DNA from: a virus
Reading direction: 5' to 3' (one strand)
IMG/VR virus record: IMGVR_UViG_3300045988_150026
Location: 1 to 64,000 of that record
Length of the DNA: 64,000 nucleotides
Positions 7,637 to 48,881 of the stretch are shown here, in pieces. Every line of letters begins with the position of its first letter. The first letter of the stretch is position 1. The notes below the pieces were generated by a model, which saw only the letters and a list, made by a program, of their open reading frames with translations, searched no databases and was not told the origin of the DNA. The position numbers and the translations under genes are program-made.

Positions 7637-7672
7637 TTAAGAGAAATTGTAATTTCAGAATGGAGAATTATC

Positions 7673-7867
7673 ATGTGGATATTTATAGCGACATATGAAA
7701 ATATGGATCTCGATAGTTCTATCAAATCGGTAAAACGGAAAATCGAATTTGATGGTGATAACTTTTTTAATACCGGAGATGAATGTTACCGTTATGCGTT
7801 AGAACAAGCATTGAAAATGAAACAGGAAAATGAATGTTTGGGTTGTTTGGAATTTATAGCATGTTAG
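7673..7867 (+). CDS. hypothetical protein
   Basis: 64 aa. TGGAGAA RBS. Confidence 0.5.
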   Translation: MWIFIATYENMDLDSSIKSVKRKIEFDGDNFFNTGDECYRYALEQALKMKQENECLGCLEFIAC

Positions 7868-7883
7868 AAGGGAAGGCAAAAAA

Positions 7884-8030
7884 ATGAAGAAAAATAAACC
7901 ACGGTGGAAAAATCTTGATATGTGGGAACGGTTAGCAAGAAGATGCAAGCAGAACGGAGCTTCTGAAGATACTGTCGAACGTATCAGAGAGCATGGAAAA
8001 CAGAGAGAAATCGAAAAAAATAGCAAATGA
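7884..8030 (+). CDS. hypothetical small basic protein
   Basis: 48 aa, below the track cutoff. GGGAAGG RBS. Fills an otherwise empty gap. Confidence 0.4.
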   Translation: MKKNKPRWKNLDMWERLARRCKQNGASEDTVERIREHGKQREIEKNSK

Positions 8031-8044
8031 AATATTAGTTTCAA
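8027..8044 (+). repeat. intercistronic motif copy ATGAAA-TATTAG-TTTCAA
   Basis: Overlaps the TGA stop of ORF 7884..8030. RBS follows. Confidence 0.5.
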
Positions 8045-8068
8045 TTTAAGAAAGGATGGTTGATTTAT

Positions 8069-8443
8069 ATGTTAAAGGCAATAAATATTAAATGGGATAC
8101 AGATGGAGACAAGGATGTATACAATGAACTCCCAACAGAACTTATTGTTCCTGATGAATTTGAGGAAATGTATAAAGAAGACGAAGAATATGTACTTGAT
8201 GAGATTTCAGATTGGTTATCAGATGAAACAGGATTTTGTCATGCAGGATTTGAGATTGAAAAGGTAATTACAAAAGAATCTGTTGAGAATGATTTATATG
8301 ATTTCTTTAATGACAAAATGGAAACTGGAGATGCACCTGAAATTGAAAGTGTGTGGAAACAATACGATCCTACAAACGGTAATATTATTACTATTGATTG
8401 TGTAGGTGGAAAGCAGATCAGATTGATTATTCAAGTAGATTAA
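8069..8443 (+). CDS. hypothetical acidic protein
   Basis: 124 aa. ATG 8069 after AAAGGATGG. Track start 8060 is a TTG. Confidence 0.6.
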   Translation: MLKAINIKWDTDGDKDVYNELPTELIVPDEFEEMYKEDEEYVLDEISDWLSDETGFCHAGFEIEKVITKESVENDLYDFFNDKMETGDAPEIESVWKQYDPTNGNIITIDCVGGKQIRLIIQVD

Positions 8444-8456
8444 GGAACGATGAGAA

Positions 8457-8612
8457 ATGTTAAAAATTAAGTTCAAATACAGAGATGAAATGAGCAACTG
8501 GAAATGGAGAACGTAAAGCTGTGTGGTTGAATCCGTAGAAGAATGTAAGAGAATTTATGGTCTTGGAATTGATTGTGACTATGAAATTCTTGAAGTAACA
8601 GAAACTAAATAA
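8457..8612 (+). pseudogene. small Cys-containing ORF interrupted by in-frame TAA at 8514
   Basis: MLKIKFKYRDEMSNWKWRT-TAA-SCVVESVEECKRIYGLGIDCDYEILEVTETK in a single frame. Reading checked codon by codon. Confidence 0.45.
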
Positions 8613-8620
8613 AGAGAATA

Positions 8621-8656
8621 ATAAGACAGATGCAGAAATGTATCTGTCTTATTTAT
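8621..8656 (+). terminator. rho-independent terminator
   Basis: ATAAGACAGAT pairs with ATCTGTCTTAT, followed by a T-rich tail. Confidence 0.65.
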
Positions 8657-8672
8657 TAGGAAGGAGAGCAGA

Positions 8673-9311
8673 ATGGGACTTGTATATTTGAAGAACGAAG
8701 AGAAACGGATTTATGAAGCGTATGGAATGATTGTGTATGGAATACAAGATAGATACACATGGAGTATTTACACAGATAGACCGGATGAAAATGTATATAC
8801 ATCATTACGGATTGAAAGAGATGAAAAGAACATTTTAGACGTTCATCTTGGAAATTTGTGTATTTTTGAAGAGAATTTTAATAGAACGATTGATAACTTT
8901 TTATGGTGGATTGATAAAGATAATCCAAATTCCTACGACATTAGACATGCTGTGTTTAAAAGTCTGACGAAAACGGATTCATTATTCAATCATCTGATTG
9001 GAAATCGTAAGCGAAAAGAACAGGCAGAAGCTAATGAAAAGGCAAGAGTTGCAGCAATAAGAGAAGAGGAACAGAGACAGATCGACTTGATCAAGCAGTA
9101 TTGCGAAAAGGAAAATCTTTTATTCAAACAGTATTATGAGAAAGCTTATCTGATTAAGTTGTATAACGAAAATGTAAAACAGATGATTGAAAATGCAGAC
9201 AACAAGCAGTTTGAAGGATTGAGAGATTTTATGAATGAACATCCTGACAATACAGATGCAGTGATTGTAATGAATGGAAATATTGAAGATATAGCAAGGC
9301 AGATAGCGTAG
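8673..9311 (+). CDS. hypothetical protein
   Basis: 212 aa. GGAAGGAG RBS. Confidence 0.65.
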   Translation: MGLVYLKNEEKRIYEAYGMIVYGIQDRYTWSIYTDRPDENVYTSLRIERDEKNILDVHLGNLCIFEENFNRTIDNFLWWIDKDNPNSYDIRHAVFKSLTKTDSLFNHLIGNRKRKEQAEANEKARVAAIREEEQRQIDLIKQYCEKENLLFKQYYEKAYLIKLYNENVKQMIENADNKQFEGLRDFMNEHPDNTDAVIVMNGNIEDIARQIA

Positions 9312-9324
9312 GAGGTTGATTGAT

Positions 9325-9687: not shown

Positions 9688-9689
9688 TT

Positions 9690-9938: not shown

Positions 9939-9940
9939 AT

Positions 9941-10210: not shown

Positions 10211-10223
10211 AGGAGTGATGTAA

Positions 10224-10508: not shown

Positions 10509-10526
10509 ATGAAAGAACGATTTCAA
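10509..10526 (+). repeat. intercistronic motif copy ATGAAA-GAACGA-TTTCAA
   Basis: Intergenic, 16 nt after stop 10493. Confidence 0.5.
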
Positions 10527-10763: not shown

Positions 10764-10775
10764 AAGGTGAAAAAT

Positions 10776-12106: not shown

Positions 12107-12361
12107 ATGAATAAGAAAAAATATTATGCAATTACAACGGAAATGGTTTTTAAGAAAACTGTTTTAGTTCCAATTGAAGAAGCAAAAGATATTGAGCAAG
12201 CAGAAAGAATTGTAGATGCTGCTGTAGAAGATTGTACTGTTATGGTACTTGATGAAGATGCAGAGTGTAACACATATACAAGTGAATATGCAGATGAAAA
12301 CGGAATGTACGAATTGACAGAAAAAGAGTCCGAATGTTATCAGATTATTTGTGAAAATTAA
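12107..12361 (+). CDS. hypothetical acidic protein
   Basis: 84 aa. AGAGG RBS. ATG 12107. Confidence 0.55.
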   Translation: MNKKKYYAITTEMVFKKTVLVPIEEAKDIEQAERIVDAAVEDCTVMVLDEDAECNTYTSEYADENGMYELTEKESECYQIICEN

Positions 12362-12400
12362 TGAAACAAGATTGCAGAATTGGAAATGTGGGAGGTACAT

Positions 12401-12644: not shown

Positions 12645-12926
12645 ATGAAAGAATTTATAGTTAGATGGACAGCAGACGGATATTGTGTTGAGTTTCATTA
12701 TCTAGTTATTGCTGAATCGTTAGATAATGCAAAAGAATTATGGGATGAATATATAAAAACACATGAGAAAATTCAGTATTCATGGGATAAAGCGGTAAAA
12801 GCAGTTAAGCATCATTATGGTGGATATATTTCATGGAAAGATAATGGAGATACGAATAGATCTAAAGGTTGTTATGAAATGGAAAGTGAGAATATCTTTA
12901 CTGGTAGCGACCATTTAAGAGATTAA
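12645..12926 (+). CDS. hypothetical protein
   Basis: 93 aa. TGGAGA RBS. Confidence 0.6.
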   Translation: MKEFIVRWTADGYCVEFHYLVIAESLDNAKELWDEYIKTHEKIQYSWDKAVKAVKHHYGGYISWKDNGDTNRSKGCYEMESENIFTGSDHLRD

Positions 12927-12943
12927 TGAAACAAGATTTTCAT
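12926..12943 (+). repeat. intercistronic motif copy ATGAAA-CAAGAT-TTTCAT, perfect arms
   Basis: Overlaps TAA 12924-12926 as TAATGAAA. A degenerate copy with the same spacer lies at 12361-12378. Confidence 0.6.
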
Positions 12944-13573: not shown

Positions 13574-13609
13574 CAATGAAATAATGATTTCAGAAACGGA
13601 GGAAATATT

Positions 13610-13808: not shown

Positions 13809-13826
13809 ATGAAACGTAGATTTCAA
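13809..13826 (+). repeat. intercistronic motif copy ATGAAA-CGTAGA-TTTCAA
   Basis: Starts 2 nt after stop 13807. Same CGTAGA spacer as the copy at 15128. Confidence 0.55.
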
Positions 13827-14372: not shown

Positions 14373-14544
14373 CACCATTAAACAATGCAATAGAAATTAT
14401 ATTGAAATGGCACTTTTAAAAAGGAGTAGATAAGGATGTTTAGAAAAAAGCATAGTAAAGGAGAGTAATTTCAAGAATGGGAATTTAAGGTTAAATGTAC
14501 TTGGATTCCTGTTCTTTTTATCTTTGTAGAAAGGGTGGTGTTAT

Positions 14545-15022: not shown

Positions 15023-15166
15023 ATGAAATACATAGATAAAGTAGAAGCGTGGTTATATCGGTTTGTTGATGGGGAATTGAGAAATTTACACCGGATTTAT
15101 ATGATGGTGTCTTATGTTTTTATTAGGATGAACGTAGATTTCAAAATTAGGAGTGGTATTATATGA
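15023..15166 (+). CDS. hypothetical small protein
   Basis: 47 aa. GGAGG RBS 10 nt upstream. ATGA overlap with the next gene. Confidence 0.4.
   Translation: MKYIDKVEAWLYRFVDGELRNLHRIYMMVSYVFIRMNVDFKIRSGII
15128..15144 (+). repeat. intercistronic motif copy ATGAA-CGTAGA-TTTCAA
   Basis: Immediately before the TAGGAG RBS of 15163. Confidence 0.5.
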
Positions 15167-16145: not shown

Positions 16146-16178
16146 ATGAAAAGCACATTTTATCAGGAGGTAAAAATT

Positions 16179-16456: not shown

Positions 16457-16870
16457 ATGCTAGAAATGAGAAATGGATTTGTAGTAACAGATAATGATTG
16501 TATGCAGTGCCGGAAAGATTTAGGAGAAAGAAAATTTTTATTCATTCAGTCAATTTTGATGGATGGAGATAATAAATATTGTGTAGTAGCCAATGCGGAA
16601 GATTTAAAAGAAATGTCATTGGACGATATTAAAATGGCAATTTGTGGTTACTACGGCAATATAAATGCAATGGAAGAATCTTGCAAGTTGCCGTTAGGAC
16701 AATTGGATGAACTTGTTGCAGAATGTTCTTTTGAGAATCATCCATATTGTGATTGGGAGTATGAAAGCGAAATCGTAACATGGGAAAGAGCAGAAGAAAT
16801 TATTCAGAAGTTTATTGATACAAATGGAGAAGCCTTTGAGGAAAATAATATGGAAAATATTAAAGATTGA
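16457..16870 (+). CDS. hypothetical protein
   Basis: 137 aa. AGAGGTG RBS. Confidence 0.6.
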   Translation: MLEMRNGFVVTDNDCMQCRKDLGERKFLFIQSILMDGDNKYCVVANAEDLKEMSLDDIKMAICGYYGNINAMEESCKLPLGQLDELVAECSFENHPYCDWEYESEIVTWERAEEIIQKFIDTNGEAFEENNMENIKD

Positions 16871-16886
16871 TTGGAGGTTAATGAGT

Positions 16887-17126: not shown

Positions 17127-17144
17127 ATGAAAACCGAATTTCAA
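17127..17144 (+). repeat. intercistronic motif copy ATGAAA-ACCGAA-TTTCAA
   Basis: Directly follows TAG 17124-17126. Confidence 0.55.
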
Positions 17145-17340: not shown

Positions 17341-17384
17341 TTTCAAATAAGATGAAAATCGTATTTTATGATTGGAGAGTAAAA

Positions 17385-19956: not shown

Positions 19957-20244
19957 ATGTTTGAGCTTAAAAAAAATACAGTGGAAGTAAAACCGAATGA
20001 TTTAAAAGAAGGGTGTGCTGCCGTAGACGATATGAATGCAGATCCTGAAATAATAAAAAGTTTTGATAATAAAGAAGATGCGTTAGAAGAGCTTGAAAAA
20101 TATAAAACAGAAATTCGTAAATTTTCCTCCTCAATTGGAAGTATGTACTCTGTTACAGAGTACTATATTCAGGAAGTTGAATATGACGAAGACGGAGATT
20201 GGATTTCTGGCGGAGACGTTTGGGAAATTAGTAAGATGGAATGA
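19957..20244 (+). CDS. hypothetical acidic protein
   Basis: 95 aa. AAGGAGG RBS before ATG 19957. Confidence 0.6.
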   Translation: MFELKKNTVEVKPNDLKEGCAAVDDMNADPEIIKSFDNKEDALEELEKYKTEIRKFSSSIGSMYSVTEYYIQEVEYDEDGDWISGGDVWEISKME

Positions 20245-20274
20245 AAGAATTGATTCATTGGAAAGGAGAGCAAT

Positions 20275-21193: not shown

Positions 21194-21616
21194 ATGGGAA
21201 AGTATTTGGATCAGTGTGCTGATGATGCATGGGAAGTTATTAGTGGCAGAAAAAAGATTGTTGGAAATAAAATCATTGATTCTGAGATAAAAATAAACAG
21301 AGAAGATTATGGTTGGCTTGCGCCAAATGGAGAATTCTTTCTTGTCGAATTTGGTAATCACCAAGCATGGGCATCAAAATATCTTTTAGATGAATATAGA
21401 AAGGGAAAACTTGAATTAGCATGTGGCAAAAATCCAGGAGATAAATTATGCGAACTTGGATTCATCCTTATTCATAATCCACATGGATATCATTTATCCA
21501 TTACAAGAGATTCGTCAAAAAGAATAACACTTAGACAGAAGGATTTTTTATTAGATTACTTTGAGAAAAATGGATTAACAGAGTGGAGTTATAAGTTGTT
21601 AGAAGACAAAATGTAA
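21194..21616 (+). CDS. hypothetical protein
   Basis: 140 aa. TGAGGTGA RBS. Confidence 0.6.
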   Translation: MGKYLDQCADDAWEVISGRKKIVGNKIIDSEIKINREDYGWLAPNGEFFLVEFGNHQAWASKYLLDEYRKGKLELACGKNPGDKLCELGFILIHNPHGYHLSITRDSSKRITLRQKDFLLDYFEKNGLTEWSYKLLEDKM

Positions 21617-21633
21617 TGAAACCAAGTTTTCAT
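21616..21633 (+). repeat. intercistronic motif copy ATGAAA-CCAAGT-TTTCAT, perfect arms
   Basis: Overlaps TAA 21614-21616. Confidence 0.6.
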
Positions 21634-21956: not shown

Positions 21957-21974
21957 ATGGAATCTAAGTTTCAA
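21957..21974 (+). repeat. intercistronic motif copy ATGGAA-TCTAAG-TTTCAA
   Basis: 6 nt after stop 21951. One arm mismatch. Confidence 0.45.
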
Positions 21975-22483: not shown

Positions 22484-22906
22484 ATGAAATATGGAGATAT
22501 CGTTGTATATAATAATCAAATTGGAACGGTAGTAAAAAGTGAAAATGATTTTAAATTTCATTCTTGTAATCGTGGATGCTGTTCGTTTAGTCTATTGGAT
22601 ACAATTACAGATAACGATGTAAGAGAAGCGACACATGATGAGAAATTGGAGTTAATAGAGAAAGAATTTACATGGGGCAATGTGTTTCAAATTCATTGCA
22701 TTGGAGAATACCAGATTGTAGAATATATTGGTAAAAGGGATAGTAAAAAACATTATCATGGATACATTAATTATAGTGATACAAATCATTCGTATTATTC
22801 TTTGGATTCTGCATTGATTGGATGTATCGGATATAAACATGAAGGTTGTAACGGAAAAGCAGCAATGTATTTTGAGAAGATGATTGGTATGGGTAATGAA
22901 ATCTAG
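22484..22906 (+). CDS. hypothetical protein
   Basis: 140 aa. ATG 22484 after GAAAGG. Confidence 0.55.
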   Translation: MKYGDIVVYNNQIGTVVKSENDFKFHSCNRGCCSFSLLDTITDNDVREATHDEKLELIEKEFTWGNVFQIHCIGEYQIVEYIGKRDSKKHYHGYINYSDTNHSYYSLDSALIGCIGYKHEGCNGKAAMYFEKMIGMGNEI

Positions 22907-22913
22907 GTTTACT
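22896..22913 (+). repeat. intercistronic motif copy ATGAAA-TCTAGG-TTTACT, degenerate right arm
   Basis: Spans the stop codon of 22484..22906. Confidence 0.4.
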
Positions 22914-22929: not shown

Positions 22930-23139
22930 ATGAAAAAAATGAGTGGATGGAACATATATTCAAAAGAAGAATTAAAGAATTTGGATAATACAGTAATGGT
23001 TATAACTGAAATGATTCAAAACAACCATCAGGAATTAACAAGATGGAAAAAAGATAGTGGAATGTACGAATTAATTGAATGTCAGACAAATGCTTTGTAT
23101 AATGCTTTGTCAGCACTTAGAAAAGCAGTTGAAATTTAA
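22930..23139 (+). CDS. hypothetical protein
   Basis: 69 aa. GGAAGGA RBS. Confidence 0.55.
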   Translation: MKKMSGWNIYSKEELKNLDNTVMVITEMIQNNHQELTRWKKDSGMYELIECQTNALYNALSALRKAVEI

Positions 23140-23162
23140 CTTTCATGGGTAATAAGATGATT

Positions 23163-24298: not shown

Positions 24299-24637
24299 AT
24301 GAAAAATTGCTTTCAAGCAGATTGGGATGAGAATATGAGTAACATGGGATATAGACCGAAAGTTTATGATTGTACTATAGACGGAATAAAAAGTGTCAAA
24401 GGTAAAAATTTATTTGTCTTACATTGGAAAGATTCAAAAGGTGATGGAAGTATGCCGATTAAGGTAGATCAACCATCAGAATTAATTCTTAATAGAATGA
24501 AAGAGATTGTAAATGGAAAGCGAGATAAATTATACTTAACAAGAGGAATGAGAGATATTGATGTTTTGTATCTCGGTGATAATAAATGGCAACTATATGA
24601 TGAATTTGATTTTTATGAATTTGAAATGGTGGTGTGA
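24299..24637 (+). CDS. hypothetical protein
   Basis: 112 aa. No clear RBS, so the start is uncertain. Confidence 0.5.
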   Translation: MKNCFQADWDENMSNMGYRPKVYDCTIDGIKSVKGKNLFVLHWKDSKGDGSMPIKVDQPSELILNRMKEIVNGKRDKLYLTRGMRDIDVLYLGDNKWQLYDEFDFYEFEMVV

Positions 24638-25286: not shown

Positions 25287-25304
25287 ATGAAAGATTGTTT
25301 TCAA
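25287..25304 (+). repeat. intercistronic motif copy ATGAAA-GATTGT-TTTCAA
   Basis: Directly follows TAA 25284-25286. Confidence 0.55.
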
Positions 25305-25700: not shown

Positions 25701-25922
25701 ATGGAAATTAAAAAAGATACTATGGTATTTTGTAAGAAAAATAAAAAGGTTGGAAAGTTTGTTGGATATGCTGACGAATCAAAAGAAAAATGTTTTATAG
25801 ATTTTTCATCGTCAGGTGATAATAGAGAATTGTATTGTATATTTGTGAAAGAGTTAAAAATTGAACCAACGAGGGAAGAAACAAACAGACTTGTCAAAAC
25901 GTATAACACAATGAAAATTTAG
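25701..25922 (+). CDS. hypothetical protein
   Basis: 73 aa. AAGGTGGA RBS before ATG 25701. Confidence 0.55.
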   Translation: MEIKKDTMVFCKKNKKVGKFVGYADESKEKCFIDFSSSGDNRELYCIFVKELKIEPTREETNRLVKTYNTMKI

Positions 25923-25928
25923 TTTCAT
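25911..25928 (+). repeat. intercistronic motif copy ATGAAA-ATTTAG-TTTCAT, perfect arms
   Basis: Contains the TAG stop of 25701..25922 in its spacer. Confidence 0.6.
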
Positions 25929-26014: not shown

Positions 26015-26845
26015 ATGAACACAAACTTAGCAACAGTAATTCCGTTTTATAAGAAAAAGAATAACGGCTTACATGTAGCAAATTTTGATAAAGCAAATGT
26101 AAAAGATTTTATAAAGAAACCACCAGTGTCAACAAAAATGGAATGCTTAAGATCACGAGACGAAATATTATCTGTATATAAGATTTTGCTTCAGAGAGTA
26201 AAATCTGCACAAACAGAAAATAAAGAAAAGAATGCAATGCGTAATCTAACGATGTATTTATGTGCAATCAATATTGGATTGAGAGGTGGGGACTTCTGTA
26301 AGCTAAAATGGAAAGATGTGTATGACGATAATTGGAACATCAGAAAGCAACAACAGTTTGTTCCAGAAAAAACAACTTACAGAGATAATGAAGGACATGT
26401 TATAAAAAGAAAATATATAACACTAAGATATGACGGAGATTTTCGGTTCGCAATATCAAATTGGAAAAGGTGGTTAGATTCACATAACATGAGTCCAAGT
26501 TTAAATGACTTCTTATTCCCGTCAAACAAACAAGATGCAATATCCGAAAAATCATGGTATGATATTGTGGAAGAAGTAAGAATTGAAGCCGGCATCAAAA
26601 GAAAGATAGGAACGCATGGACTCAGGAAGACGTATGGACATTCCTATTATAAAGCGTCTTCGGACAAAGAAAAGGCACTGATCCAATTAATGCTTATCTT
26701 TGGACATTCCGATATGAGAATTACATTAAGGTATATTTGCATATCAGATGAAGAGATTATGGAAGCACAGGAAAGAATGTGTATTTTTTCAAATGAGTCA
26801 AATTTTTCTGAAGATGTGGAAATAATAACTGGAAACGGAGATTGA
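26015..26845 (+). CDS. tyrosine recombinase / phage integrase
   Basis: 276 aa. GLRGGD (Arg box), HGLRKT (HxxR), GHSDMRITLRY (His...Tyr) catalytic pattern. Confidence 0.85.
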   Translation: MNTNLATVIPFYKKKNNGLHVANFDKANVKDFIKKPPVSTKMECLRSRDEILSVYKILLQRVKSAQTENKEKNAMRNLTMYLCAINIGLRGGDFCKLKWKDVYDDNWNIRKQQQFVPEKTTYRDNEGHVIKRKYITLRYDGDFRFAISNWKRWLDSHNMSPSLNDFLFPSNKQDAISEKSWYDIVEEVRIEAGIKRKIGTHGLRKTYGHSYYKASSDKEKALIQLMLIFGHSDMRITLRYICISDEEIMEAQERMCIFSNESNFSEDVEIITGNGD

Positions 26846-28532: not shown

Positions 28533-28866
28533 ATATAAGGGAATAAAAAAAGAAGAAAGTTGATAAGGACGGCAATCCACAACTTTCTTCCCAATACATA
28601 TATCACATAGAGAAGTCGGCAAACTTAACTATGCGACTACATTATTACATAAATGTATAAGCATAGTCAAGTTATTGTTGGTGTTTCTACCAATATTTCC
28701 CTGTAACTACAAACAACAGAATATGGGTCGATTCTTGTTCTATAGACATAGAGCATACATCAAAAACCATTTTATTTTGAAATGAGAATTTCAAGGTCTT
28801 TTTTGTGTACCCTTTTTTACAAACTCATGAGAATAAGTTGGTATCAGGAGAAAGGAGTGATCAATT
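28533..28866 (+). ncRNA. long untranslated leader or candidate ncRNA
   Basis: About 330 nt after the promoter with no convincing ORF. 11-bp perfect hairpin GAAGAAAGTTG/CAACTTTCTTC (28552-28562/28580-28590). TGAAAT-GAGA-ATTTCA hairpin (28778-28793) followed by T runs. Confidence 0.4.
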
Positions 28867-29477: not shown

Positions 29478-30164
29478 ATGTATTTCACACAACAACAGTA
29501 TGACAGGATGATCATGACGCAAGAAGAAGCTGAAAAGATTGGGGAGAAATATCTGTCAAATAACATGGCAGAACTTAACAGTATTTTAAATGAGTTGATT
29601 AAGAAAAAACGGATGCCTAGGTTTTTTAATGATGATTTAAAAAGTCTTGGGTATTTAGTATTTACTCAGAGCATTGATACATACGATCCAAACCAAACTG
29701 CCTCTTTCAAAACCTATTTATGGGGAAATATTTGGAAAAAATTTTGGACATACTCAAGAGATTTAACAAATCCTATGAGATGTGCAAGAGAAATGCAATG
29801 GAACGAAGATGAAAAACGTTGGGAAGAAACCCCCGTATTTGACATTTCAATATTCGCTAGAATAAATGAGGATGATTCAAAGGAACTTTGGGAAAATTTC
29901 TCGGAAGACGTATCAATCGAAGACGAAGTAATGCAAGACCTTTTTTCAGATAGCTATAATGACTTCTCAAATGAAATGAAAACTTATTTGGATGGTCTTT
30001 CTGGTCTACAAAAAGAAATATTATACATGCTTGCGGATGGCTTTTCGCAAACAGAAATTGAGGATATCTTACATATTAATAAGGATATATACAATGACAG
30101 CACAAGTGCGATTAAAAATAATATAAGAACAAGAGAATTAAGGAGAAAATACAATGTTAAATGA
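29478..30164 (+). CDS. sigma-70-family RNA polymerase sigma factor
   Basis: 228 aa. Region 2-like SLGYLVFTQSIDTYDPNQTASFKTYLWGNIW. Region 4 HTH LSGLQKEILYMLADGFSQTEIEDIL. Confidence 0.6.
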   Translation: MYFTQQQYDRMIMTQEEAEKIGEKYLSNNMAELNSILNELIKKKRMPRFFNDDLKSLGYLVFTQSIDTYDPNQTASFKTYLWGNIWKKFWTYSRDLTNPMRCAREMQWNEDEKRWEETPVFDISIFARINEDDSKELWENFSEDVSIEDEVMQDLFSDSYNDFSNEMKTYLDGLSGLQKEILYMLADGFSQTEIEDILHINKDIYNDSTSAIKNNIRTRELRRKYNVK

Positions 30165-31635
30165 ATACAGATTAGAAACACTAAATATATCACAGTATAT
30201 GGAATCAGTAGAAGACGGTGACATTAAAGTAGATCAGGCAGTACAGCGTGCCTTCTGCTGGAGCAATGAAATGATTAACAATCTAATTTACTCAACAGTT
30301 GCAACGAAGAGAGTGTATATCCCAAATATAATTCTCGCAGAAGAAAACCATGACGATGGAACAACTCAAACTTATGTAGTGGATGGTGGTCAAAGAACAG
30401 AAGCAATCAGACGTTTTATTTTTGACGGATATAAAATTACCAGATCGATTAGAAATCGTTACATTGAATATCAGGATAATAAGATTGATGAAAATGGAAA
30501 AGTAGTTCGTGATGAAAATGGTGACATTGTAAAAGAGATTAAGGTTTTTGACCTCGTAAATAAGACGTATGATGATTTTCCAAAAGAGTTAAAGAAAAGG
30601 ATGGGCAAATGCAAGCTTGCTGCGGCAGTTTATCAGGACTGTACCCCAGAAGAAACTAGTGATCTCGTACTGTTATACAACTCAACTGTGAGCATGTCAC
30701 CGTCACAGAAAGCATTGACATATATTGGTGCTTTCGCTGAAAGAATTAAGAATATTACAACTCATGACTTTTTAATTAATGGGACAACCCTTTCCGAGAC
30801 AGATAAAAAGAAAGGAAACTGGGAGCGAACAATATCCGAGTGTGTTATGGCAGCGAGATATTTTGACGACTGGAAAAAGAACCCAAAAGATATTTGTAAA
30901 TATTTAAACGACAATGCGAAAGAGAAAGATTTTTCTGTGGTTGAAGGGTATTTTGATAAACTTAGTCGGTTTTCTAATAAGCTTCAGAATATGAAGATCG
31001 TAGAACTATTCTCGGCAAAAAATTTGCCAGCATGGATGTTGGTGATGAAAGAATTAGAGAATAAGGAAGTATCAGATAAAACATTTAGAGAATTCTTGTT
31101 GTCATTTGATTCAGCCAAAGGAACAGAAATAGATGGAAGCACGTGGTATGAATTAGAAAATAATAAACATACAAAAGACAAAAAGTTAATTTTAGCAAAA
31201 GCAAATTACATAAACAAACTCCTTTCAGATTACATAAACGGAAATCCTGAAGTTGACGAAGAAAAAAATTTTGAAAAAATAAATTCAGATGATTCTGAAA
31301 TGGAAACCATTGATTTTGTGAAACAGTTCGTTGATCCGGATTGTACAGACGAAGATATTGATGATTATTTTGGATATCTTGAATCATGCATAAAAGATCT
31401 CAGAATTGTGAAGGCTGATTCTCCTGTAGTTGCACCAGAAAATGAAAATGCAATTATCGCAGTTGTTGCTTATGCATATAAACATGATATTGATATGGAT
31501 TTGTGGTTGCAGAGGTATTCAATTAGCCATAAAACTTTCCCAGAAGAAATGTCGCAAGGAGATAGATATAAAACTATGTTACATAGTCTAGTAAATTTTC
31601 TTAAAATGCAAAAGAAAGTGGGTACAAAAGTATGA
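30154..31635 (+). CDS. DUF262 (ParB-like / GmrSD N-terminal-type) domain protein
   Basis: 493 aa. VDQAVQRAFCWS...YVVDGGQRTEAI corresponds to the QR...DGQQR motifs. No HNH or DUF1524 motif seen in the C-terminus. Confidence 0.65.
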   Translation: MLNEYRLETLNISQYMESVEDGDIKVDQAVQRAFCWSNEMINNLIYSTVATKRVYIPNIILAEENHDDGTTQTYVVDGGQRTEAIRRFIFDGYKITRSIRNRYIEYQDNKIDENGKVVRDENGDIVKEIKVFDLVNKTYDDFPKELKKRMGKCKLAAAVYQDCTPEETSDLVLLYNSTVSMSPSQKALTYIGAFAERIKNITTHDFLINGTTLSETDKKKGNWERTISECVMAARYFDDWKKNPKDICKYLNDNAKEKDFSVVEGYFDKLSRFSNKLQNMKIVELFSAKNLPAWMLVMKELENKEVSDKTFREFLLSFDSAKGTEIDGSTWYELENNKHTKDKKLILAKANYINKLLSDYINGNPEVDEEKNFEKINSDDSEMETIDFVKQFVDPDCTDEDIDDYFGYLESCIKDLRIVKADSPVVAPENENAIIAVVAYAYKHDIDMDLWLQRYSISHKTFPEEMSQGDRYKTMLHSLVNFLKMQKKVGTKV

Positions 31636-33238: not shown

Positions 33239-33304
33239 ATTAAAGCAAGCAAATTAGCCAATTAGAAGAAAGTCACATTTCAAATGAGAAAGGAGAATAA
33301 AATA

Positions 33305-35801: not shown

Positions 35802-36362
35802 ATGGGAACTAAAGATAATACTTATGCAAACACAGGAAAGAGATTATATTTTCTATCAGACGATGTAGATAATGAATCAATTGGACAACTTACATGGAAC
35901 ATATTGCATCAGCTTGCAGAAGATGATGAGAAAGATAAGAAAGAAAAGGATTATAAACGTGAACCAATTAAAATCTACATCAATTCGTATGGTGGAGTAG
36001 TTTATGACATGTGGGGATTGATTGACATTATTGTAAATAGCAAAACACCAATTTATACATATTGTACCGGTTATGCCATGAGTGCAGCTTTCAAGATTTT
36101 CTTAGCAGGGCATAAGCGATATTGTTACAAGCACTCCACATTCATGATTCATCAACCTGTTTGTTGGATTAGTGGAAAATATACAGATATTAAAGAAAAC
36201 ATGGCAGAACATGATCGAATGAATGAATATATTATCCAGTATATTCTTGATAGAACATATTTTAAAAAAGAAGAACTGGATAATATTTGGGAAAAGAAAC
36301 AAGACTTTTATATTAATTCAGAAGATGCTGAGAAATATGGAATTGTTAATGAAGTTTTGTAA
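35802..36362 (+). CDS. clpP: ClpP-family serine protease
   Basis: 186 aa. INSYGGVVYDMWGLIDII...CTGYAMSAAFKIFLAG...MIHQP matches the ClpP Ser/His core. Confidence 0.8.
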   Translation: MGTKDNTYANTGKRLYFLSDDVDNESIGQLTWNILHQLAEDDEKDKKEKDYKREPIKIYINSYGGVVYDMWGLIDIIVNSKTPIYTYCTGYAMSAAFKIFLAGHKRYCYKHSTFMIHQPVCWISGKYTDIKENMAEHDRMNEYIIQYILDRTYFKKEELDNIWEKKQDFYINSEDAEKYGIVNEVL

Positions 36363-36380: not shown

Positions 36381-37511
36381 ATGAGAGTATATAAAGATAA
36401 ACAATTTCTTGTCTTTGATTTTGAAGACGGAAGAAATGTTAAGTATGATTTTGCGACCAAGACAGCGATCGGAATCAAAGGAAAACCTGTAAAAGATTTG
36501 CGAAGTCAGTTAAGTGGAATTTCAATGAACCGAGTAATTGAAAATTGTGACGATAAGAAGTATGCAAAATTCTTGAATTTTGTAATGAGAGCAGAATCTT
36601 CATATCATGAAATTTGGAATATCGGAACTGTACTTGATAGAGTTCCATTTTATTCAAGATTTGAGCAATTATTTTCTGCTGGTATAGATGATATTGTTGA
36701 CGTAAGAGAACAAAACTTGAAAAGTTTTAAATATTCTATTGAAGACATTCCAAAATCACTTCTTAAAATATGTAGAAAATATTCTATAAAAATTTCCAAC
36801 GACACTATTAGATTTTATAAAGAAAACCCAAACGCATATTGTATTGCCTATAAGTTAGATTATTTAAGTTTGGATTATTACGACATCTATAAAATATGGA
36901 AAACATCAGAAAACATGTATGATGCAAACGCAAAATCATATTTTAACATCCTTGTAAATGAGTACGGATATAATGCAAAAGATTTATGGCTATACATAGA
37001 TAGAATAAAGACATTTGAAGCAATTGAAGATATGGCTTTTCTTATTCGTGAATTATGTGATTATGCGGACATGATGAGGCAGCTTAGTAATAAGTACGAC
37101 AAGTATCCAAGACATTTTCTTACAACTCATAAAATTGCATGTAGAAATTATGACAGAATGAAGAAAGAATTTTCAGAAGAGTTATTTAGAAAAAGAATTA
37201 AAAAAGAATATGAATGTTCATTTGGAGAATATGTATTTATTTATCCTAAGTCTACTCAAGATATCAAGGATGAGGCAGCCTGCCAAAGTAATTGTGTTAG
37301 TTCTTATATAGATAAGGTTATTGATGGATACTGTCATATATTATTCTTGAGAAAAAAGAACAGTCCAAAAGAAAGTCTTGTAACAATAGAGGTTAGAAAT
37401 GATCAGATTGTCCAGGCTAAAAGAAGATTCAACGATGATGTAACAGAAGAACAGAAAGAAGTAATTGATAAGTTCAATAAGAAATTTGGAAAGGAGATTA
37501 AGGCAGCATGA
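36381..37511 (+). CDS. PcfJ-like protein
   Basis: 376 aa. C-terminal CQSNCVSSYIDKV..GYCHILFLRKK...LVTIEV resembles the PcfJ-like family, from memory. Confidence 0.5.
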   Translation: MRVYKDKQFLVFDFEDGRNVKYDFATKTAIGIKGKPVKDLRSQLSGISMNRVIENCDDKKYAKFLNFVMRAESSYHEIWNIGTVLDRVPFYSRFEQLFSAGIDDIVDVREQNLKSFKYSIEDIPKSLLKICRKYSIKISNDTIRFYKENPNAYCIAYKLDYLSLDYYDIYKIWKTSENMYDANAKSYFNILVNEYGYNAKDLWLYIDRIKTFEAIEDMAFLIRELCDYADMMRQLSNKYDKYPRHFLTTHKIACRNYDRMKKEFSEELFRKRIKKEYECSFGEYVFIYPKSTQDIKDEAACQSNCVSSYIDKVIDGYCHILFLRKKNSPKESLVTIEVRNDQIVQAKRRFNDDVTEEQKEVIDKFNKKFGKEIKAA

Positions 37512-37983: not shown

Positions 37984-38445
37984 ATGATTATATTACTTAT
38001 TATAATTTCAATCATAGGATTTATTATAGCTTATGTAATTGATGAAGATTTTGCTGGTTTTTTCTCAGTATGTTTCTGTGTATTACTTGTCATTGGTATG
38101 TTTTTAGGGATTTCTGTAAGTAATGGAAAAACCATAGACGAAAAAATTGTAATGTACCAAGAAGAGAATAACAAAATAGAGAAACAAATCGACACATTGG
38201 TTTCTAATTATATGAACTATGAATCTGATACATATGAAAAAATAAAATCAGAAAGTTCTATTACATTAGTTTCTATGTATCCAGAACTGAAATCAGATAA
38301 ATTAGTAGAAGAACAAATTTCCGTATATGAAGAAAACAATAAAAAGATCAGAGAATTCAAGGAAGATAAGATCAACCTGAAAGTTAAGAAGTGGTGGTTG
38401 TATTTTGGAGGTCGAATGAAATCGAACTTTCATAATGGAGAATAA
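37984..38445 (+). CDS. membrane-anchored coiled-coil protein
   Basis: 153 aa. Two N-terminal transmembrane segments. Confidence 0.6.
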   Translation: MIILLIIISIIGFIIAYVIDEDFAGFFSVCFCVLLVIGMFLGISVSNGKTIDEKIVMYQEENNKIEKQIDTLVSNYMNYESDTYEKIKSESSITLVSMYPELKSDKLVEEQISVYEENNKKIREFKEDKINLKVKKWWLYFGGRMKSNFHNGE

Positions 38446-42486: not shown

Positions 42487-42504
42487 ATGAAAGCCGTGTT
42501 TCAT
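42487..42504 (+). repeat. intercistronic motif copy ATGAAA-GCCGTG-TTTCAT, perfect arms
   Basis: 5 nt after stop 42482. GGAGG RBS follows. Confidence 0.6.
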
Positions 42505-44951: not shown

Positions 44952-46067
44952 ATGTTAAAAGCTTACAAATATAGATTACATCCTAATAAACAACAGGAAA
45001 TTCAAATACAAAAAACTTTCGGATGTTGTAGGTTTGTTTACAATTATATGCTTAATTATAAACAGGAGTTGTATGAAACGAAGAAAGAATTTATGAGTAA
45101 GTTTGATTGTAATAATTATGTGAATCGTGTTCTTAAGAAAGAATATGAATGGTTAAAAAATGTAGACAAATTCGCTCTTACAAATGCAATTTATAATATG
45201 GATTCAGCTTATCAGAAATTTTTCAAAGAACATACTGGTTATCCAAGATTTAAAAGTAAAAAAGATAATAAAAAGTCTTATAAAACAAATAACAATGTAA
45301 ATAAGGGAATAGCAACTATTCGTATTGAAAAGAATAGATTAAGACTTCCTAAAATTGGAATGGTAAGAATTGTTTATTCAAGAGAAATAACAGAAAGGAT
45401 AAAATCTGCAACTATTTCACAAGATCCATCTGGAAAATATTTTGCATCAATATTATTTGAAGCAGAATACGAATATTTACCAAAGAGCAATAATTCAGTC
45501 GGTGTTGATTTAGGAATTAAGGATTTACTTATCACTTCGGATGGTGAGAAAATTAAAAACATTCTTACTACAAAGAAATATGAAAATAAATTAACAAAAG
45601 AGCAAAGAAAACTTGCTAAGAAACAAAGAGGTAGTGTCAACTATGGGAAACAGAGAATAAAAGTAGCTAAAATATATGAAAAAATTCGTAATATCAGACT
45701 ATATAATTTACATCAAATTTCTCACAAACTTATAATCGAAAACCAAGTGATAGTGAGTGAGAATTTAAATATAGAAAGTATGCGACAGAATCATAATCTT
45801 GCAAAATCTGTATCTGGTTGTAGTTGGTACGAATTAACTAGACAGTTATTTTATAAGGCTGAATGGTATGGAAGAGAATATATAAAAATAGATAGATTTT
45901 TTGCAAGTAGTCAGTTATGTAATTGTTGTGGTTATCAAAACAAAGAGGTTAAAGATTTATCTGTTAGAGAATGGATATGTCCGGAATGTGGAACTGTTCA
46001 TGATAGAGATGTAAACGCTGCGATTAATATTCTTAATGAAGGATTGAGATTGCTAGAAGTAGCTTAA
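44952..46067 (+). CDS. tnpB: TnpB (IS605 OrfB-type RNA-guided nuclease)
   Basis: 371 aa. N-terminal [13 protein letters not shown]. RuvC residues VGVDLGI, VSENL and [11 protein letters not shown]. Zinc finger CNCCG...CPECG. Confidence 0.9.
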
Positions 46068-46160
46068 ATATAAAACATACGGCAATATCTGTCGGAATTT
46101 ACGCCTGTGGAGATAGTAGGTTACGAGGTTTATGAAGCAGGAAGGTTTATAAAAACCAGA
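46068..46160 (+). ncRNA. putative omega-RNA scaffold / right end of the first element
   Basis: ACGGCAATATCTGTCGGAATTTACGCCTGTGGAG...GAAGCAGGAAGG is homologous to the 3' coding and right-end region of the second element. Extent not determined. Confidence 0.4.
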
Positions 46161-46222
46161 TAAAAACAATATTTCAAGTGGAGAATAAATAATATGTAGC
46201 ATATATAAAGGGAGGTAGTTTT

Positions 46223-47080
46223 ATGGATAGAAGTGATCTCGCAGAAAGAATGAAAGGCTATGAAAAAAGGAATAGATATTATCTTCAGCGAAGGATGCCA
46301 GTAATTTTGAGGCTAGACATGAGAGCTGGACATAGCTTCACAAAAGGATTTGAAAGACCGTTTGATGAAGTTTTTATTAAAGCAATACAAGAAACGGCAA
46401 AATATTTATGCGAAAATGTTCAAAATTGTAAGTTATCTTATCAACAAAGTGACGAAATTACATTATTACTTGTTGATTATGAAAAAATAAATACAGATTG
46501 TTTCTTTGAATATAGAGTAGATAAACTTTGTAGTATTGCAGCAAGTATGGCTACGATGAAATTTAATCAAGTTTTTAAAGAATTATCTTATAGAGAGTCA
46601 GAAAATTTGGAAATTATTTGTAGAAAAAATCCATATTTAGAAAACAGAGATTGTTTAACTAAAATTCCTAATGTACATACCAATTCAGCAGATAAAGGTG
46701 CAATGTTCGATTGCAGATGTTTCAATATTCCAAAGGAAGAAGTAACTAATAGCATTTATTGGCGACAACTTGACGCTACACGAAACTCTATTCAGATGGT
46801 AGGACAAGCTAATTTTTCGCACAAAGAATTGCAGAACAAGTCTTGCAACGATATTCAGGATATGCTTATGACTCAGAAAGGTATTAATTGGAATGATTTG
46901 CCGCTATATCAAAAACGTGGATCTTGTTGTATTAGAAATCATATGATTTCACTACCATATGGCGATTACCTGCTAGATGAAACCGCAGGTGAAAACGAAT
47001 GGATTATTGATAAAGATATTCCAATCTTCAAAGGTGAAGGTAGAAAATATATTGATAATCTTGTTTTCGTAGGAGAATAA
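46223..47080 (+). CDS. Thg1-like protein (tRNA-His guanylyltransferase family, 3'-5' nucleotidyl transferase)
   Basis: 285 aa. PVILRLDMRAGHSFTKGFERPFDE and YQQSDEITLLL correspond to the Thg1 RxDG..F...F.KP.D and SDE metal-binding motifs. Confidence 0.7.
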   Translation: MDRSDLAERMKGYEKRNRYYLQRRMPVILRLDMRAGHSFTKGFERPFDEVFIKAIQETAKYLCENVQNCKLSYQQSDEITLLLVDYEKINTDCFFEYRVDKLCSIAASMATMKFNQVFKELSYRESENLEIICRKNPYLENRDCLTKIPNVHTNSADKGAMFDCRCFNIPKEEVTNSIYWRQLDATRNSIQMVGQANFSHKELQNKSCNDIQDMLMTQKGINWNDLPLYQKRGSCCIRNHMISLPYGDYLLDETAGENEWIIDKDIPIFKGEGRKYIDNLVFVGE

Positions 47081-47085
47081 ATGTA

Positions 47086-47493
47086 ATGGATATTTTAAGG
47101 CGAGAAATTAAAAAGCAAATCGAATATTGCATAAAATTTGACAGATACAAAGCAGGATTTTTTGTTTCAGATGTGTCAAAGATTAACAAGATAAAAGAAA
47201 TCTTAGACGGAGTAAATAAAATAGTTGGGCAAATGATGCATGTTGTCAAATTAAAAGAGAATGAGTTGTATGTGGAGTTTTGGAATGGTAGTAGTATGAA
47301 AGTATTTGTACCTTCTGATAATTGTCGAGGATATAAGATCAATGGTTGTCTTATAGATGAAAATATAGCACAAGATGTAAAAGATTGTATTATATATCCA
47401 CGGATTATGCAGAGATATGTTGAAGTTGATGGCGTTCTTAAATTTGAAGATAGACTCGAAACAAATAAACGTATCGTGGAAGTAGAAATATAG
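47086..47493 (+). CDS. hypothetical protein
   Basis: 135 aa. FWNGSSMKVF....RGYKINGCLIDE is reminiscent of a terminase ATPase fragment, but the ORF is far too short. Confidence 0.55.
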   Translation: MDILRREIKKQIEYCIKFDRYKAGFFVSDVSKINKIKEILDGVNKIVGQMMHVVKLKENELYVEFWNGSSMKVFVPSDNCRGYKINGCLIDENIAQDVKDCIIYPRIMQRYVEVDGVLKFEDRLETNKRIVEVEI

Positions 47494-47505
47494 GGGAATA
47501 AACAG

Positions 47506-47781
47506 ATGAGTGTATACGAATTACAACAGCATGACGTTATTTCTTACAAGCCTCCACAGCCACATAAACAAAAGTATAAGATTGGAAAATATATTTCTGT
47601 TTACGAATTAGTTGAAGCAACATCTGGTTCACCTGCTTTAAGGTTGGAAAGAGATAAAAATGAAGACAAAATGCTTAGAGTTAATGGAATAAAATATGTA
47701 AAATTCCCGTGGTGGAAGTTTTGGAAGAAAAGAAAATATGTTGCTAAATATTATCTAGAGGTTATGTGGGGAAATAGATGA
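47506..47781 (+). CDS. hypothetical protein
   Basis: 91 aa. Confidence 0.55.
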   Translation: MSVYELQQHDVISYKPPQPHKQKYKIGKYISVYELVEATSGSPALRLERDKNEDKMLRVNGIKYVKFPWWKFWKKRKYVAKYYLEVMWGNR

Positions 47782-48128
47782 ATAAAGAAAATTTAATTCC
47801 GAATGTTACATATTCTTCCGAAGATGTTGGAAAAGCATTAAAACTAATTGTAAGAAGACTGAATGAAAGAAAAAATGAAAAAATAAAAATTTCGCACATA
47901 TGTAGTACGTGTAAACACAGATGTACAGAAACGTATTTGACGCAGGATTGGATGGTTGAAAAAGTTTGGCATAATTGGTGTGGTCTTAATAAAAAATATA
48001 TGGAAACAGAATATGGTCATGGCAATAACAAACATTTTTTAGAACCTTGCGAATATTGGGAAATGTCAGATTATTATAAAGATAAGGAAGATAGATATGA
48101 ACAATCGACAGAAAAAGAAATTTATTAA
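47778..48128 (+). CDS. hypothetical Cys-containing protein
   Basis: 116 aa. ATGA overlap with the upstream gene. Confidence 0.55.
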   Translation: MNKENLIPNVTYSSEDVGKALKLIVRRLNERKNEKIKISHICSTCKHRCTETYLTQDWMVEKVWHNWCGLNKKYMETEYGHGNNKHFLEPCEYWEMSDYYKDKEDRYEQSTEKEIY

Positions 48129-48381
48129 TAAAAACATGATTAAGCTGAAAAAGATTCATCCAGATGAAGGCGATGTAGTTATTATTCAGTTTGATCCTGG
48201 CAATGAATATATGAGTATTGGTACTGTTCTTGAGTTCTACGAAGCATGGGAAGGTGCTGGGATTTTTGATAACTGTAGAGTTGCTATTGTTCCATGCAAT
48301 GTAAAAGTTTTGGGCAAAGAAGCTGCACAAAAATGTTGTGATGCTTTGCAAGAAGTAATTAATGAGATGGATGACGATTGA
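48097..48381 (+). CDS. hypothetical protein
   Basis: 94 aa. N-terminal MNNRQKKKF is shared with 57253..57657. Confidence 0.55.
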   Translation: MNNRQKKKFINKNMIKLKKIHPDEGDVVIIQFDPGNEYMSIGTVLEFYEAWEGAGIFDNCRVAIVPCNVKVLGKEAAQKCCDALQEVINEMDDD

Positions 48382-48401
48382 TGAAAATGGATGGATAAAA
48401 A

Positions 48402-48679
48402 ATGATTAAAGAATATTGTGATATTTGTGGTAAAGAAGTTGTAACAGATAAATATTTTCTTCCGGTTATGAAAGACAGTTATGTAAGAGCAAACATGGCA
48501 TTCCTATGGTTGCAACAAAAGTAATGTCGTCTGAAAGAAAAGATGTGTGTCAAGACTGTGCAAGAAAAATACAATTTCTAATTGATTGCATTTTACTTGA
48601 TAAAGATATTTCAATAACATTTGAATCATCAGAAGCAGGTAAGTCATGTCGCATTGAGTATGTAGGAGACAAGTTATGA
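48402..48679 (+). pseudogene. zinc-ribbon gene split by a frameshift near 48489-48496
   Basis: Frame A gives MIKEYCDICGKEVV...YVRA, then stops at 48522. The frame shifted by one base continues KHGIPMVATKVMSSERKDVCQDCARKIQ... to TGA 48677-48679. The CxxC halves lie in different frames. GCAAACATGG could be a shortened A run. Confidence 0.5.
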
Positions 48680-48867
48680 TAATTGACGGTTTAGTGTACG
48701 GACTTGTAAGTGCGATGATATTATCAATATTCGGAGTAGATGATATTTTTATAGATTCATTACAACCATTTGTACATGGTATTAAATTAACTTCGGATCA
48801 TTTCTATCTCGCATTTGCATGTCTTGGGGCGATAGGAGCTATCTTAAAAGAGCTTGTAAGTTTATGA
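48676..48867 (+). CDS. small membrane protein
   Basis: 63 aa. Two hydrophobic segments. Confidence 0.5.
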   Translation: MIIDGLVYGLVSAMILSIFGVDDIFIDSLQPFVHGIKLTSDHFYLAFACLGAIGAILKELVSL

Positions 48868-48881
48868 AAGTTTTGTTTCAT
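48864..48881 (+). repeat. intercistronic motif copy ATGAAA-GTTTTG-TTTCAT, perfect arms
   Basis: Contains TGA stop 48865-48867. TAGGAGG RBS follows. Confidence 0.6.

Follow-up and report, generated by a model that had tools for sequence, protein, structure and literature searches.

How phages shuffle their fast-evolving accessory genes for host takeover and anti-defence is a long-standing question with two classical answers: either joining is illegitimate and random, with selection acting afterwards, or exchange is guided by linkers. 'Linker' or 'boundary' sequences for modular phage evolution were reportedly proposed by Botstein in 1980 and, for lambdoid phages, by Clark and colleagues in 2001; the lambdoid cases are few in number and are not known to share a motif. 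The core sites of simple tyrosine recombinases (Xer/dif, Cre/lox) consist of inverted arms of 9–13 bp around a 6–8-bp centre, at whose borders the cognate recombinase cleaves and which must be identical in the two partners. Engineered heterospecific lox or FRT sites that differ in their centres fail to recombine, which permits a cassette swap without deletion. We know of no natural multi-address system of this kind. Integron attC sites are 57–141 nt long, act as folded single strands with R''/L''/L'/R' boxes, and belong to the upstream cassette. Here we describe about 25 copies of an 18-nt palindrome that separate the small accessory genes of a large gut phage, in a stretch of 64,000 nt from the IMG/VR record IMGVR_UViG_3300045988_150026 (hereafter the window). 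We propose, with a probability of roughly 0.6, that these 18-bp elements are DNA-level connectors delimiting exchangeable slots in a same-strand array of accessory genes, and that exchange between related genomes is restricted by the address that each connector carries.

The nearest precedent is provided by the PeSLs of T4-like phages, in which a strong sigma-70 promoter is combined with a functional terminator stem-loop and any nearby pair recombines to give mini-circles (PMC2839356, PMC4122927). Like PeSLs, the elements reported here are repeated and intergenic, lie in hyperplastic regions of small non-essential genes, where they form the joint between unrelated sequences, and bracket inserted or deleted ORFans. 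Unlike PeSLs, they have no promoter or terminator and a marginal hairpin, each copy has a slot-specific spacer, and exchange seemingly takes place within the same slot only. Stoperators of Cluster A mycobacteriophages are 13-bp asymmetric sites for the immunity repressor, which binds as a monomer and blocks elongation, and they have no variable centre (PMC3029335, PMC9283540). The present elements resemble them in their dozens of short intergenic copies, often over stop codons and in one orientation relative to transcription, and differ in their 18-bp dyad-symmetric core of 6-6-6 layout with conserved slot-specific centres. They share inverted arms around a short centre with Xer/dif and lox core sites, although only 4–6 bp are conserved per arm. 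With integron arrays they share promoter-less small genes on one strand, imperfect palindromes and a tyrosine recombinase gene alongside, whereas at 18 nt they are unlike attC, the spacer belongs to the position and not to the gene, and the recombinase is not of the IntI type. As in the lambdoid linkers, short conserved gene-boundary sequences would guide module exchange; unlike these, they belong to a single motif family, in which the arms are common and each centre is unique, at more than 20 junctions per genome. Full-text literature searches found no description of such elements.

The window has a G+C content of 32% and a positive GC skew throughout; its + strand holds 23 of the 23 open reading frames (ORFs) of at least 180 amino acids (aa), and a rough gene call on this strand gives about 160 densely packed ORFs with strong GGAGG-type ribosome-binding sites (RBS). 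Enrichment of the palindrome, which had been noticed in a preliminary description of the same DNA, was borne out against dinucleotide-preserving shuffles of the 64-kb window: ATGAAA-N6-TTTCAW occurs at 14 sites (20 strand matches) against 0.26 expected, and TGAAA-N6-TTTCA at 16 sites where 0.52 are expected, a number that none of 100 shuffles attained. Across clades the general form is A-N-GAAA-N6-TTTC-N-W, dyad-symmetric with a variable 6-nt centre, its GAAA and TTTC half-sites being centred 10 bp apart. A position weight matrix (PWM) built from the sites adds just an A ahead of TGAAA, the flanks are uninformative, and information is confined to positions 1–6 and 13–17. Position 2 is T in the clade of the window, varies among T, C, G and A in a second and is predominantly A or G in a third. 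The elements do not extend beyond the variable region of small genes. Of the 16 exact sites, 15 are intergenic and separate + strand ORFs, the exception being 38416. The gaps that hold an element are mostly 30–45 nt and contain a stop codon, the element and the Shine–Dalgarno sequence (SD) or RBS, with most elements finishing 0–10 nt before the SD. The left arm has a double role, as its positions 2–4 form a stop codon (TGA or TAA) that many upstream ORFs use; the stop of the upstream ORF is often the element's own TGA or a stop codon within the spacer.

Searches for close DNA relatives among deposited phages (megablast of 10 kb against INPHARED) found none, and comparisons were made with IMG/VR contigs of 95–205 kb that encode close and more distant homologues of two window proteins (numbered loci such as L022 below). 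The elements are likewise enriched in relatives, with 16 GAAA-N6-TTTC sites against 1.28 expected in L022 and 14 sites against 0.44 expected in L025. In the window and 12 related contigs (13 in all) we counted 39 spacers, 23 of which are present in at least two contigs, and the shared order reads TTGTAA < TATTAG < GAACGA < CAAGAT < CGATGA < CGTAGA < CGGAAA < AGCACA < ACCGCA < GTTTGC < GAATTA < TAATAG < CCAAGT < TCTAGG < TTTAAC < TTCGAC < TGACGA < AATTGC < GATTGT < CAGACA < ATTTAG. Pairwise, 428 comparisons are concordant with this order and 0 are discordant, and among 116 intact sites there are 0 intact same-spacer duplicates within a contig. Each spacer would act as the label of a slot, and we refer to it as an address. 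The order also extends to MT835469, a deposited 176-kb genome from human faeces, which has 25 TGAAA-N6-TTTCA sites, nearly all within the same-strand region of small genes at 10–90 kb, and keeps the series GAGATA < CAAGAG < TTTAAC < AATTGC < AATTGT < GATTGT followed by its recombinase gene. At its CAAGAG and GATTGT elements both 250-nt flanks have no detectable homology to any fetched locus, and at the remaining shared addresses flank homology is absent or limited to short weak matches. Adjacent addresses in MT835469.1 (23548, 23753 and 24320) and in L020 (17432–17982) form the one-step series AATTGC, AATTGT, GATTGT, a pattern that points to element duplication, with one subsequent change in the spacer, as the origin of new slots.

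Spacer conservation was assessed at positional orthologues picked by their flanks and not by the element, in alignments that are not phylogenetically independent. Where flanks are 90–97% identical, mismatches number 0 of 138 spacer positions and 0 of 184 core-arm positions against 5.7% in the flanks; where flanks are 97–99.5% identical, they number 0 of 72 spacer positions against 1.8% in the flanks, so that the two classes together give 0 mismatches in 210 spacer positions. When an address is present twice in a genome, one copy is always altered: the copy at 12361 lacks its right arm and that at 15128 has a 1-nt deletion, and each encloses inserted ORFs together with its intact partner. The preliminary description had concluded that arms are conserved and spacers vary, which is true within one genome; between genomes each slot keeps its own spacer, and slot order is collinear. 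It was right in reporting CGTAGA and CAAGAT as shared spacers, with one copy of each pair crippled. The motif recurs with collinear spacers at corresponding junctions of the relatives, and of the three candidates then offered (DNA operator, RNA hairpin, recombination boundary) the relatives favour the recombination boundary.

The genes around a conserved address change. For GATTGT, present in nine contigs, the upstream ORFs fall into seven unrelated clusters and the downstream ORFs into four, in mixed combinations. Among 215 same-spacer pairs between contigs (300-nt flanks, blastn), neither flank is homologous in 131, the left flank only in 26, the right only in 12 and both in 46; shared flanks are near-identical (median 99.6%). 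In one-sided pairs the per-position identity is 0.95–1.0 up to the element and about 0.3–0.5 beyond its edges (positions 0/1 and 17/18); where the left flank is the shared one the fall to background comes at position 18, and in the mirror case the rise comes at positions 1–2. At AATTGC, four contigs have an identical left flank through ACGAAAAATTGCTTTCA and then three unrelated right flanks, and at GATTGT in L022 a left flank of the window type is joined to a right flank of the L020 type. The outer arm bases are linked to the neighbouring genes, position 2 tracking the upstream gene and positions 17–18 the downstream gene (upstream cluster 72 always comes with 'AC', downstream cluster 128 always with 'GA'), and the joints therefore lie within positions 3–16. 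When exact islands of 15 nt or more between unrelated flanks were sought without bias, these elements emerged as the commonest class, the remaining islands being mainly chance A+T-rich strings and RBS-plus-start strings. These comparisons show the elements as conserved islands where related genomes were joined slot by slot with the register kept. A second class of short island amid unrelated flanks consists of RBS-plus-start strings, for example ATTGGAGGTTGAT(N)ATG (L013 8697–8720, L014 10402–10425, window 16857–16879); these may be joints where the palindrome is missing.

Cassette boundaries resemble 'right arm - RBS - gene - left arm', and cassettes were found beside a dissimilar spacer in 0 right-flank and 2 left-flank cases. 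Hopping of cassettes among dissimilar addresses is essentially absent, which argues for address-restricted exchange and against free transposition. In L020, L022 and L023 we observed the arrangement [AATTGC] gene50 [AATTGT*] gene243 [GATTGT] together with its two single-gene derivatives; L022 and L023 look like deletions between neighbouring addresses. The probable joints of these derivatives fall in 5-nt arm tracts and not in the longer identical tract that includes the spacer, which hints at exchange at the arm/spacer borders, in two events only.

A second phage family carries an analogous element. The PcfJ-like protein of the window (36381–37511) is 47% identical to its homologue in the phiCD211 family of Clostridioides difficile, which comprises large extrachromosomal 'plasmidial' siphoviruses (PMC5786514); the paper on this family does not mention palindromes or intergenic repeats (PMC5786514). 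We analysed LN681537.2 60001–110000 (L029) for phiCD211, and L030 corresponds to CP067347.1 4500–54499. In phiCD211, TAAAA-N6-TTTTA occurs at 16 sites in 50 kb against 1.8 expected, all 16 of 16 between annotated coding sequences, and along the sense strand it has the form WTAAAA-N6-TTTTAA and directly adjoins the SD. The arms thus differ by phage family (GAAA/TTTC against TAAAA/TTTTA). Nine spacers are common to phiCD211 and phage ES-S-0107-01 and stand in the same order; both flanks are unrelated at three of them, the right flank only is shared at three, the left only at two, and both at one. There is also an empty slot: phiCD211 has two different elements 6 nt apart (around 86139–86181), and ES-S-0107-01 has a small ORF between the same two. 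ES-S-0107-01 offers a further case of an altered duplicate, GCTTAA and TCTTAA bracketing a 1.2-kb insert. Chimeric assembly is an unlikely source of the mosaic joints, given that 18 nt of identity is shorter than assembler k-mers and that the same pattern is seen between these two phages, whose complete genomes from culture exclude assembly artefacts.

The arms may be read by an Xer/invertase-like tyrosine recombinase of 276 aa, as yet no more than a candidate for this role, whose gene (26015–26845, + strand; PF00589, 62 bits) sits just after the densest array. The protein gives weak matches to XerH, XerA and XerD and contains the motifs GLR..HGLR..GHS..RY; against NF040815, a XerA/integron-integrase model, it scores 39.7 bits, where the cut-off is 220. 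Its gene is syntenic in MT835469, and the two proteins are 65% identical. A search with the recombinase for prophage or plasmid copies in GTDB representative genomes found none.

Under the connector reading, the arms would be common to all copies and the slot-specific 6-bp spacer would serve as the address. When related genomes meet, a crossover would occur inside the element, solely between elements with the same spacer, so that neighbouring genes would be replaced and slot order would stay unchanged. The arms could be two half-sites on one face of the DNA, read by a dimeric protein, and the spacer could be the homology that restricts exchange, for example as the overlap region of a tyrosine recombinase (candidate 26015–26845). 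Alternatively, the spacer may be the core of a 14–18-bp microhomology used by a phage annealing or recombination system, with the arms then conserved for some different function, for example as an operator. A protein of the Erf family is encoded by phiCD211. Addresses would persist because only cassettes with standard connectors can spread, which is the simplest, cassette-level explanation. A full multi-address system of site-specific cassette exchange, in which a recombinase such as the Xer-like enzyme binds the arms and the 6-bp centre is a heterospecific overlap as in engineered lox and FRT sites, is a speculative version that we consider doubtful.

Several observations weigh against the connector reading and against a dedicated recombinase. 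The conserved arms of 4–6 bp fall below the 9–13-bp arms of known tyrosine-recombinase core sites, and the recombinase, which is tied to the elements by position alone, could merely resolve phage-plasmid dimers. Exact breakpoints inside an island are expected of any short identity between unrelated flanks and are no proof of a dedicated enzyme, and selection for exchangeability is second-order unless seen at the cassette level. Gene order is also broken at more than half of the element-free junctions, and element junctions are only modestly enriched for breaks (odds ratio 1.6–3.2, p 0.24 to 0.001). The elements are therefore not the sole joints, and we rejected the idea that synteny breaks are confined to them. 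In the oldest class of alignments (flanks 70–90% identical, seven alignments) 7 of 42 spacer positions mismatch, diverging like the flanks, so spacer conservation is strong and not absolute. Finally, the element is asymmetric, with A at position 1 in 85% of copies and T at position 18 in 53%, and on the sense strand it invariably has a stop codon before it and an SD after it, which makes a role in gene expression possible.

Such a role could be played at the DNA level by a dispersed operator set, through which a dimeric phage protein (of the Cro/C1-type helix-turn-helix (HTH) or ParB/KorB-like kind) silences or tunes the accessory operon, much as stoperators work in mycobacteriophage L5, recombination being incidental since the elements are the only conserved sequence between variable genes. 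The dyad of GAAA and TTTC half-sites 10 bp apart is what such a protein would read, and the first part of the window has several genes for HTH proteins (947–1231, 1440–1724, 3360–3689 and 4058–5173), in agreement with the many HTH proteins noted in the preliminary description. The cultured relatives are phage-plasmids that need their lytic genes silenced (PMC5786514), the arms differ by phage family, and about 25 intergenic copies match the stoperator numbers of 24 in L5 and 34 in Bxb1 (PMC3029335). We nevertheless consider an operator set unlikely. A protein reading the arms does not explain why slots should retain their specific spacers (0 of 210 mismatches against 1.8–5.7% in the flanks) and leaves the conserved order (428:0) and the absence of intact duplicates unexplained; moreover, the elements lie in the variable small-gene region and not at promoters. 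Promoter-like sites show no excess between 7000 and 26900 (107 against 111.9 expected), and most elements end so close to the SD that there is no room for a promoter. A few element-to-start gaps are long (about 75 nt) and may hold internal promoters; a perfect TTGACA-N17-TATAAT promoter lies 3' of the TAATAG element in L020 (15223–15310), and also in L021 and L023.

The constant sense-strand placement, after the stop codon of one gene and before the SD of the following one, the sense-oriented asymmetry in both phage families and the doubling of the left arm as a stop codon would suit an RNA element on a polycistronic transcript, that is, a small hairpin bound or cut as a processing site, stabiliser or translational operator, or an insulator of the RBS from the upstream gene. 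We hold this to be quite improbable, as the predicted hairpins (6-bp stem) have marginal energies of -1 to -3 kcal/mol, position 16 of degenerate copies changes from C to A 12 times and from C to T 10 times and so shows no G·U bias, and such an element leaves the fixed-order, slot-specific spacers unexplained. Positions 2/17 are Watson-Crick paired in 6 of 21 distinct elements of the clade in which they vary (clade B), no more than chance, and inner spacer positions pair less often than chance. Searches of the whole window gave 0 Rfam matches and no tRNA genes. On these energies and pairings we rejected a stable RNA hairpin, and with it the earlier suggestion of an RNase-target hairpin is unsupported; the earlier view that sequence and not covariation is conserved was largely right, the GAAA/TTTC core being kept and positions 2/17 lacking consistent pairing. 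Apparent compensatory arm changes (ATGAAA/TTTCAT, AAGAAA/TTTCTT, AGGAAA/TTTCCT) proved to be an artefact of searching for perfect arms and find no support in an unbiased table; mixed arms are better explained as recombinant elements. That the elements are not terminators, as previously stated, is borne out by the weak hairpins and by 4 terminator-like sites against 3.8 expected, none coinciding with an element; the G+C-rich stem and U tract of an intrinsic terminator are missing. Nor are they repetitive extragenic palindromes or bacterial interspersed mosaic elements (REP/BIME; 20–40-nt G+C-rich palindromes with a GTAG/CGTC tag and a RAYT transposase), as the arms are A+T-rich and the tag is absent on direct reading; the only transposase-like genes in the scan were those for TnpB, none of them beside an element. 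An integron-like array, in which each gene is a mobile cassette with its own site, excised as a circle and inserted by the neighbouring integrase at any element, would account for the adjoining recombinase gene, the form of the cassette boundaries, the inserted genes bracketed by crippled duplicates and the empty slot of phiCD211. It is very unlikely, because the spacer travels with neither neighbouring gene, dissimilar neighbours are almost lacking (0 right-flank, 2 left-flank cases), the sites are 18 bp and not 57–141-bp folded attC, and the recombinase scores far below the integrase cut-off (39.7 against 220 bits). Lastly, ATGAAA is a common start context in an A+T-rich genome with TAA and TGA stops, and the motif overlaps stop codons; a compositional artefact is nonetheless already refuted by the enrichment (16 against 0.52 expected, 0 of 100 shuffles, and likewise in relatives) and by the motif's conservation in relatives, and we give it practically no credence. 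The ATG is unused as a start, and the arms of other clades (ACGAAA, AAGAAA or TTAAAA) are without ATG; on these grounds, and given an inconsistent frame, we also rejected a mini-ORF beginning at the element's ATG.

All catalogued elements of the window are on the + strand. The perfect-arm sites listed in the preliminary description were placed correctly: ATGAAA-CAAGAT-TTTCAT (12926–12943), ATGAAA-CCAAGT-TTTCAT (21616–21633), whose right flank but not left flank is common with L016, ATGAAA-ATTTAG-TTTCAT (25911–25928), with the recombinase gene 86 nt downstream, ATGAAA-GCCGTG-TTTCAT (42487–42504) and ATGAAA-GTTTTG-TTTCAT (48864–48881); those at 12926, 42487 and 48864 were pattern matches. Equally right were the TTTCAA sites ATGAAA-TATTAG-TTTCAA (8027–8044), where the upstream ORF stops at the element TGA, ATGAAA-GAACGA-TTTCAA (10509–10526) and ATGAAA-CGTAGA-TTTCAA (13809–13826), both pattern matches, ATGAAA-ACCGAA-TTTCAA (17127–17144), for which relatives have ACCGCA, and ATGAAA-GATTGT-TTTCAA (25287–25304), the address discussed above for its seven upstream and four downstream gene clusters over nine contigs. 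Two further TTTCAA sites are present in altered form, the crippled CGTAGA duplicate ATGAA-CGTAGATTTCAA (15128–15144), which has a 1-nt left-arm deletion and encloses four ORFs together with 13809, and the degenerate ATGGAA-TCTAAG-TTTCAA (21957–21974). Of the copies described as degenerate, ATGAAA-AGCACA-TTTTAT (16146–16163; address AGCACA intact in L013–L016) and ATGAAA-TCTAGG-TTTACT (22896–22913; address TCTAGG) are so in the right arm, and 12361–12378 is only a half element, in which other sequence stands in place of the right arm after the left arm and spacer CAAGAT (ATGAAACAAGAT|TGCAGA); it repeats the 12926 address in crippled form.

The shorter N4 variants previously placed at 7643, 13577 and 28778 are genuine sites with a geometry identical to the rest, having been read one base further in. 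They correspond to GAGAAA-TTGTAA-TTTCAG (7641–7658), whose address TTGTAA recurs in L021–L023 with other flanking gene clusters, ATGAAA-TAATGA-TTTCAG (13576–13593), a pattern match, and TTGAAA-TGAGAA-TTTCAA (28777–28794). The statement that no T run follows the elements holds generally and fails at the last of these: in the region 28777–28830 two T runs (aggtcttttttgtgtacccttttttac) come after the element, unlike at the others, in an 81-nt gap past the block that follows the recombinase gene, and this may be a genuine transcript end. Sites omitted from the earlier list are TTGAAA-TTTAAC-TTTCAT (23129–23146), where the upstream ORF stops at the TAA within the spacer, ATGAAA-AATTGC-TTTCAA (24299–24316), a pattern match whose joints were compared in relatives, ATGAAA-TCGAAC-TTTCAT (38416–38433), which lies within the last 10 codons of an ORF just before the next RBS and recurs as the same element in L003 and L004, TTGAAA-TTTTTC-TTTCAT (54278–54295), a pattern match, and AAGAAA-GTCACA-TTTCAA (33266–33283), together with three degenerate copies. 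The latter are TTGAAA-TGGCAC-TTTTAA (14402–14419), whose left flank and left arm are common with L013 (6137) and which diverges from the spacer on, ATGAAA-ATCGTA-TTTTAT (17352–17369), found by PWM and gap inspection, and ATGAAA-GAATTG-ATTCAT (20241–20258), for which the address in relatives is GAATTA.

The window also encodes two IS200/IS605-type TnpB proteins, which are RNA-guided endonucleases (44952–46067 and 51812–52915; 488 and 519 bits against NF038281), whose genes share 65% DNA identity, have no TnpA and are each preceded by a conserved left-end-like sequence (AATYCCATTARCTTTAGCTGAT). A link between the 18-mers and TnpB was rejected, as the TnpB ends are unrelated to them and the genes are not adjacent to elements. 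An RNA-repair-type set comprises a Thg1-like tRNA-His guanylyltransferase, an RNA ligase and a polynucleotide kinase (46223–47080, 58422–59729 and 59729–60619), which suggests a counter to host defences that cleave tRNA or RNA. Further genes encode a protein with a GmrSD_N (DUF262) domain (30154–31635), syntenic in MT835469, a 371-aa protein in which DUF6551 is fused to a Cro/C1 HTH at the N terminus (4058–5173), and other Cro/C1 HTH proteins (947–1231, 1440–1724 and 3360–3689). A ClpP/head-maturation-protease-like ORF (35802–36362) lies in the accessory region next to the PcfJ-like ORF (36381–37511), the best anchor for relatives, with 314 phage records, mostly from Bacillota phages.

We rate the elements as a case of guided modular shuffling at intergenic repeats, with the unusual and testable property of address-restricted exchange. 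As natural evidence for exchange that is guided and preserves register, the second of the two classical answers, they are unusually clean, and the idea can be put to the test in cultured C. difficile phages, since the phage-plasmids of the phiCD211 family have an analogous element. Under the speculative recombinase version, related phages could swap cassettes slot by slot without deletions or reordering, and the phage would keep a standardised 'socket' architecture for its anti-host gene repertoire. Should an enzyme read the arms, nature would have its own equivalent of heterospecific recombinase-mediated cassette exchange, which might also be useful as a tool. Even if short-homology recombination is at work, the addresses would constitute a coordinate system for gene flux in an abundant group of gut phages.

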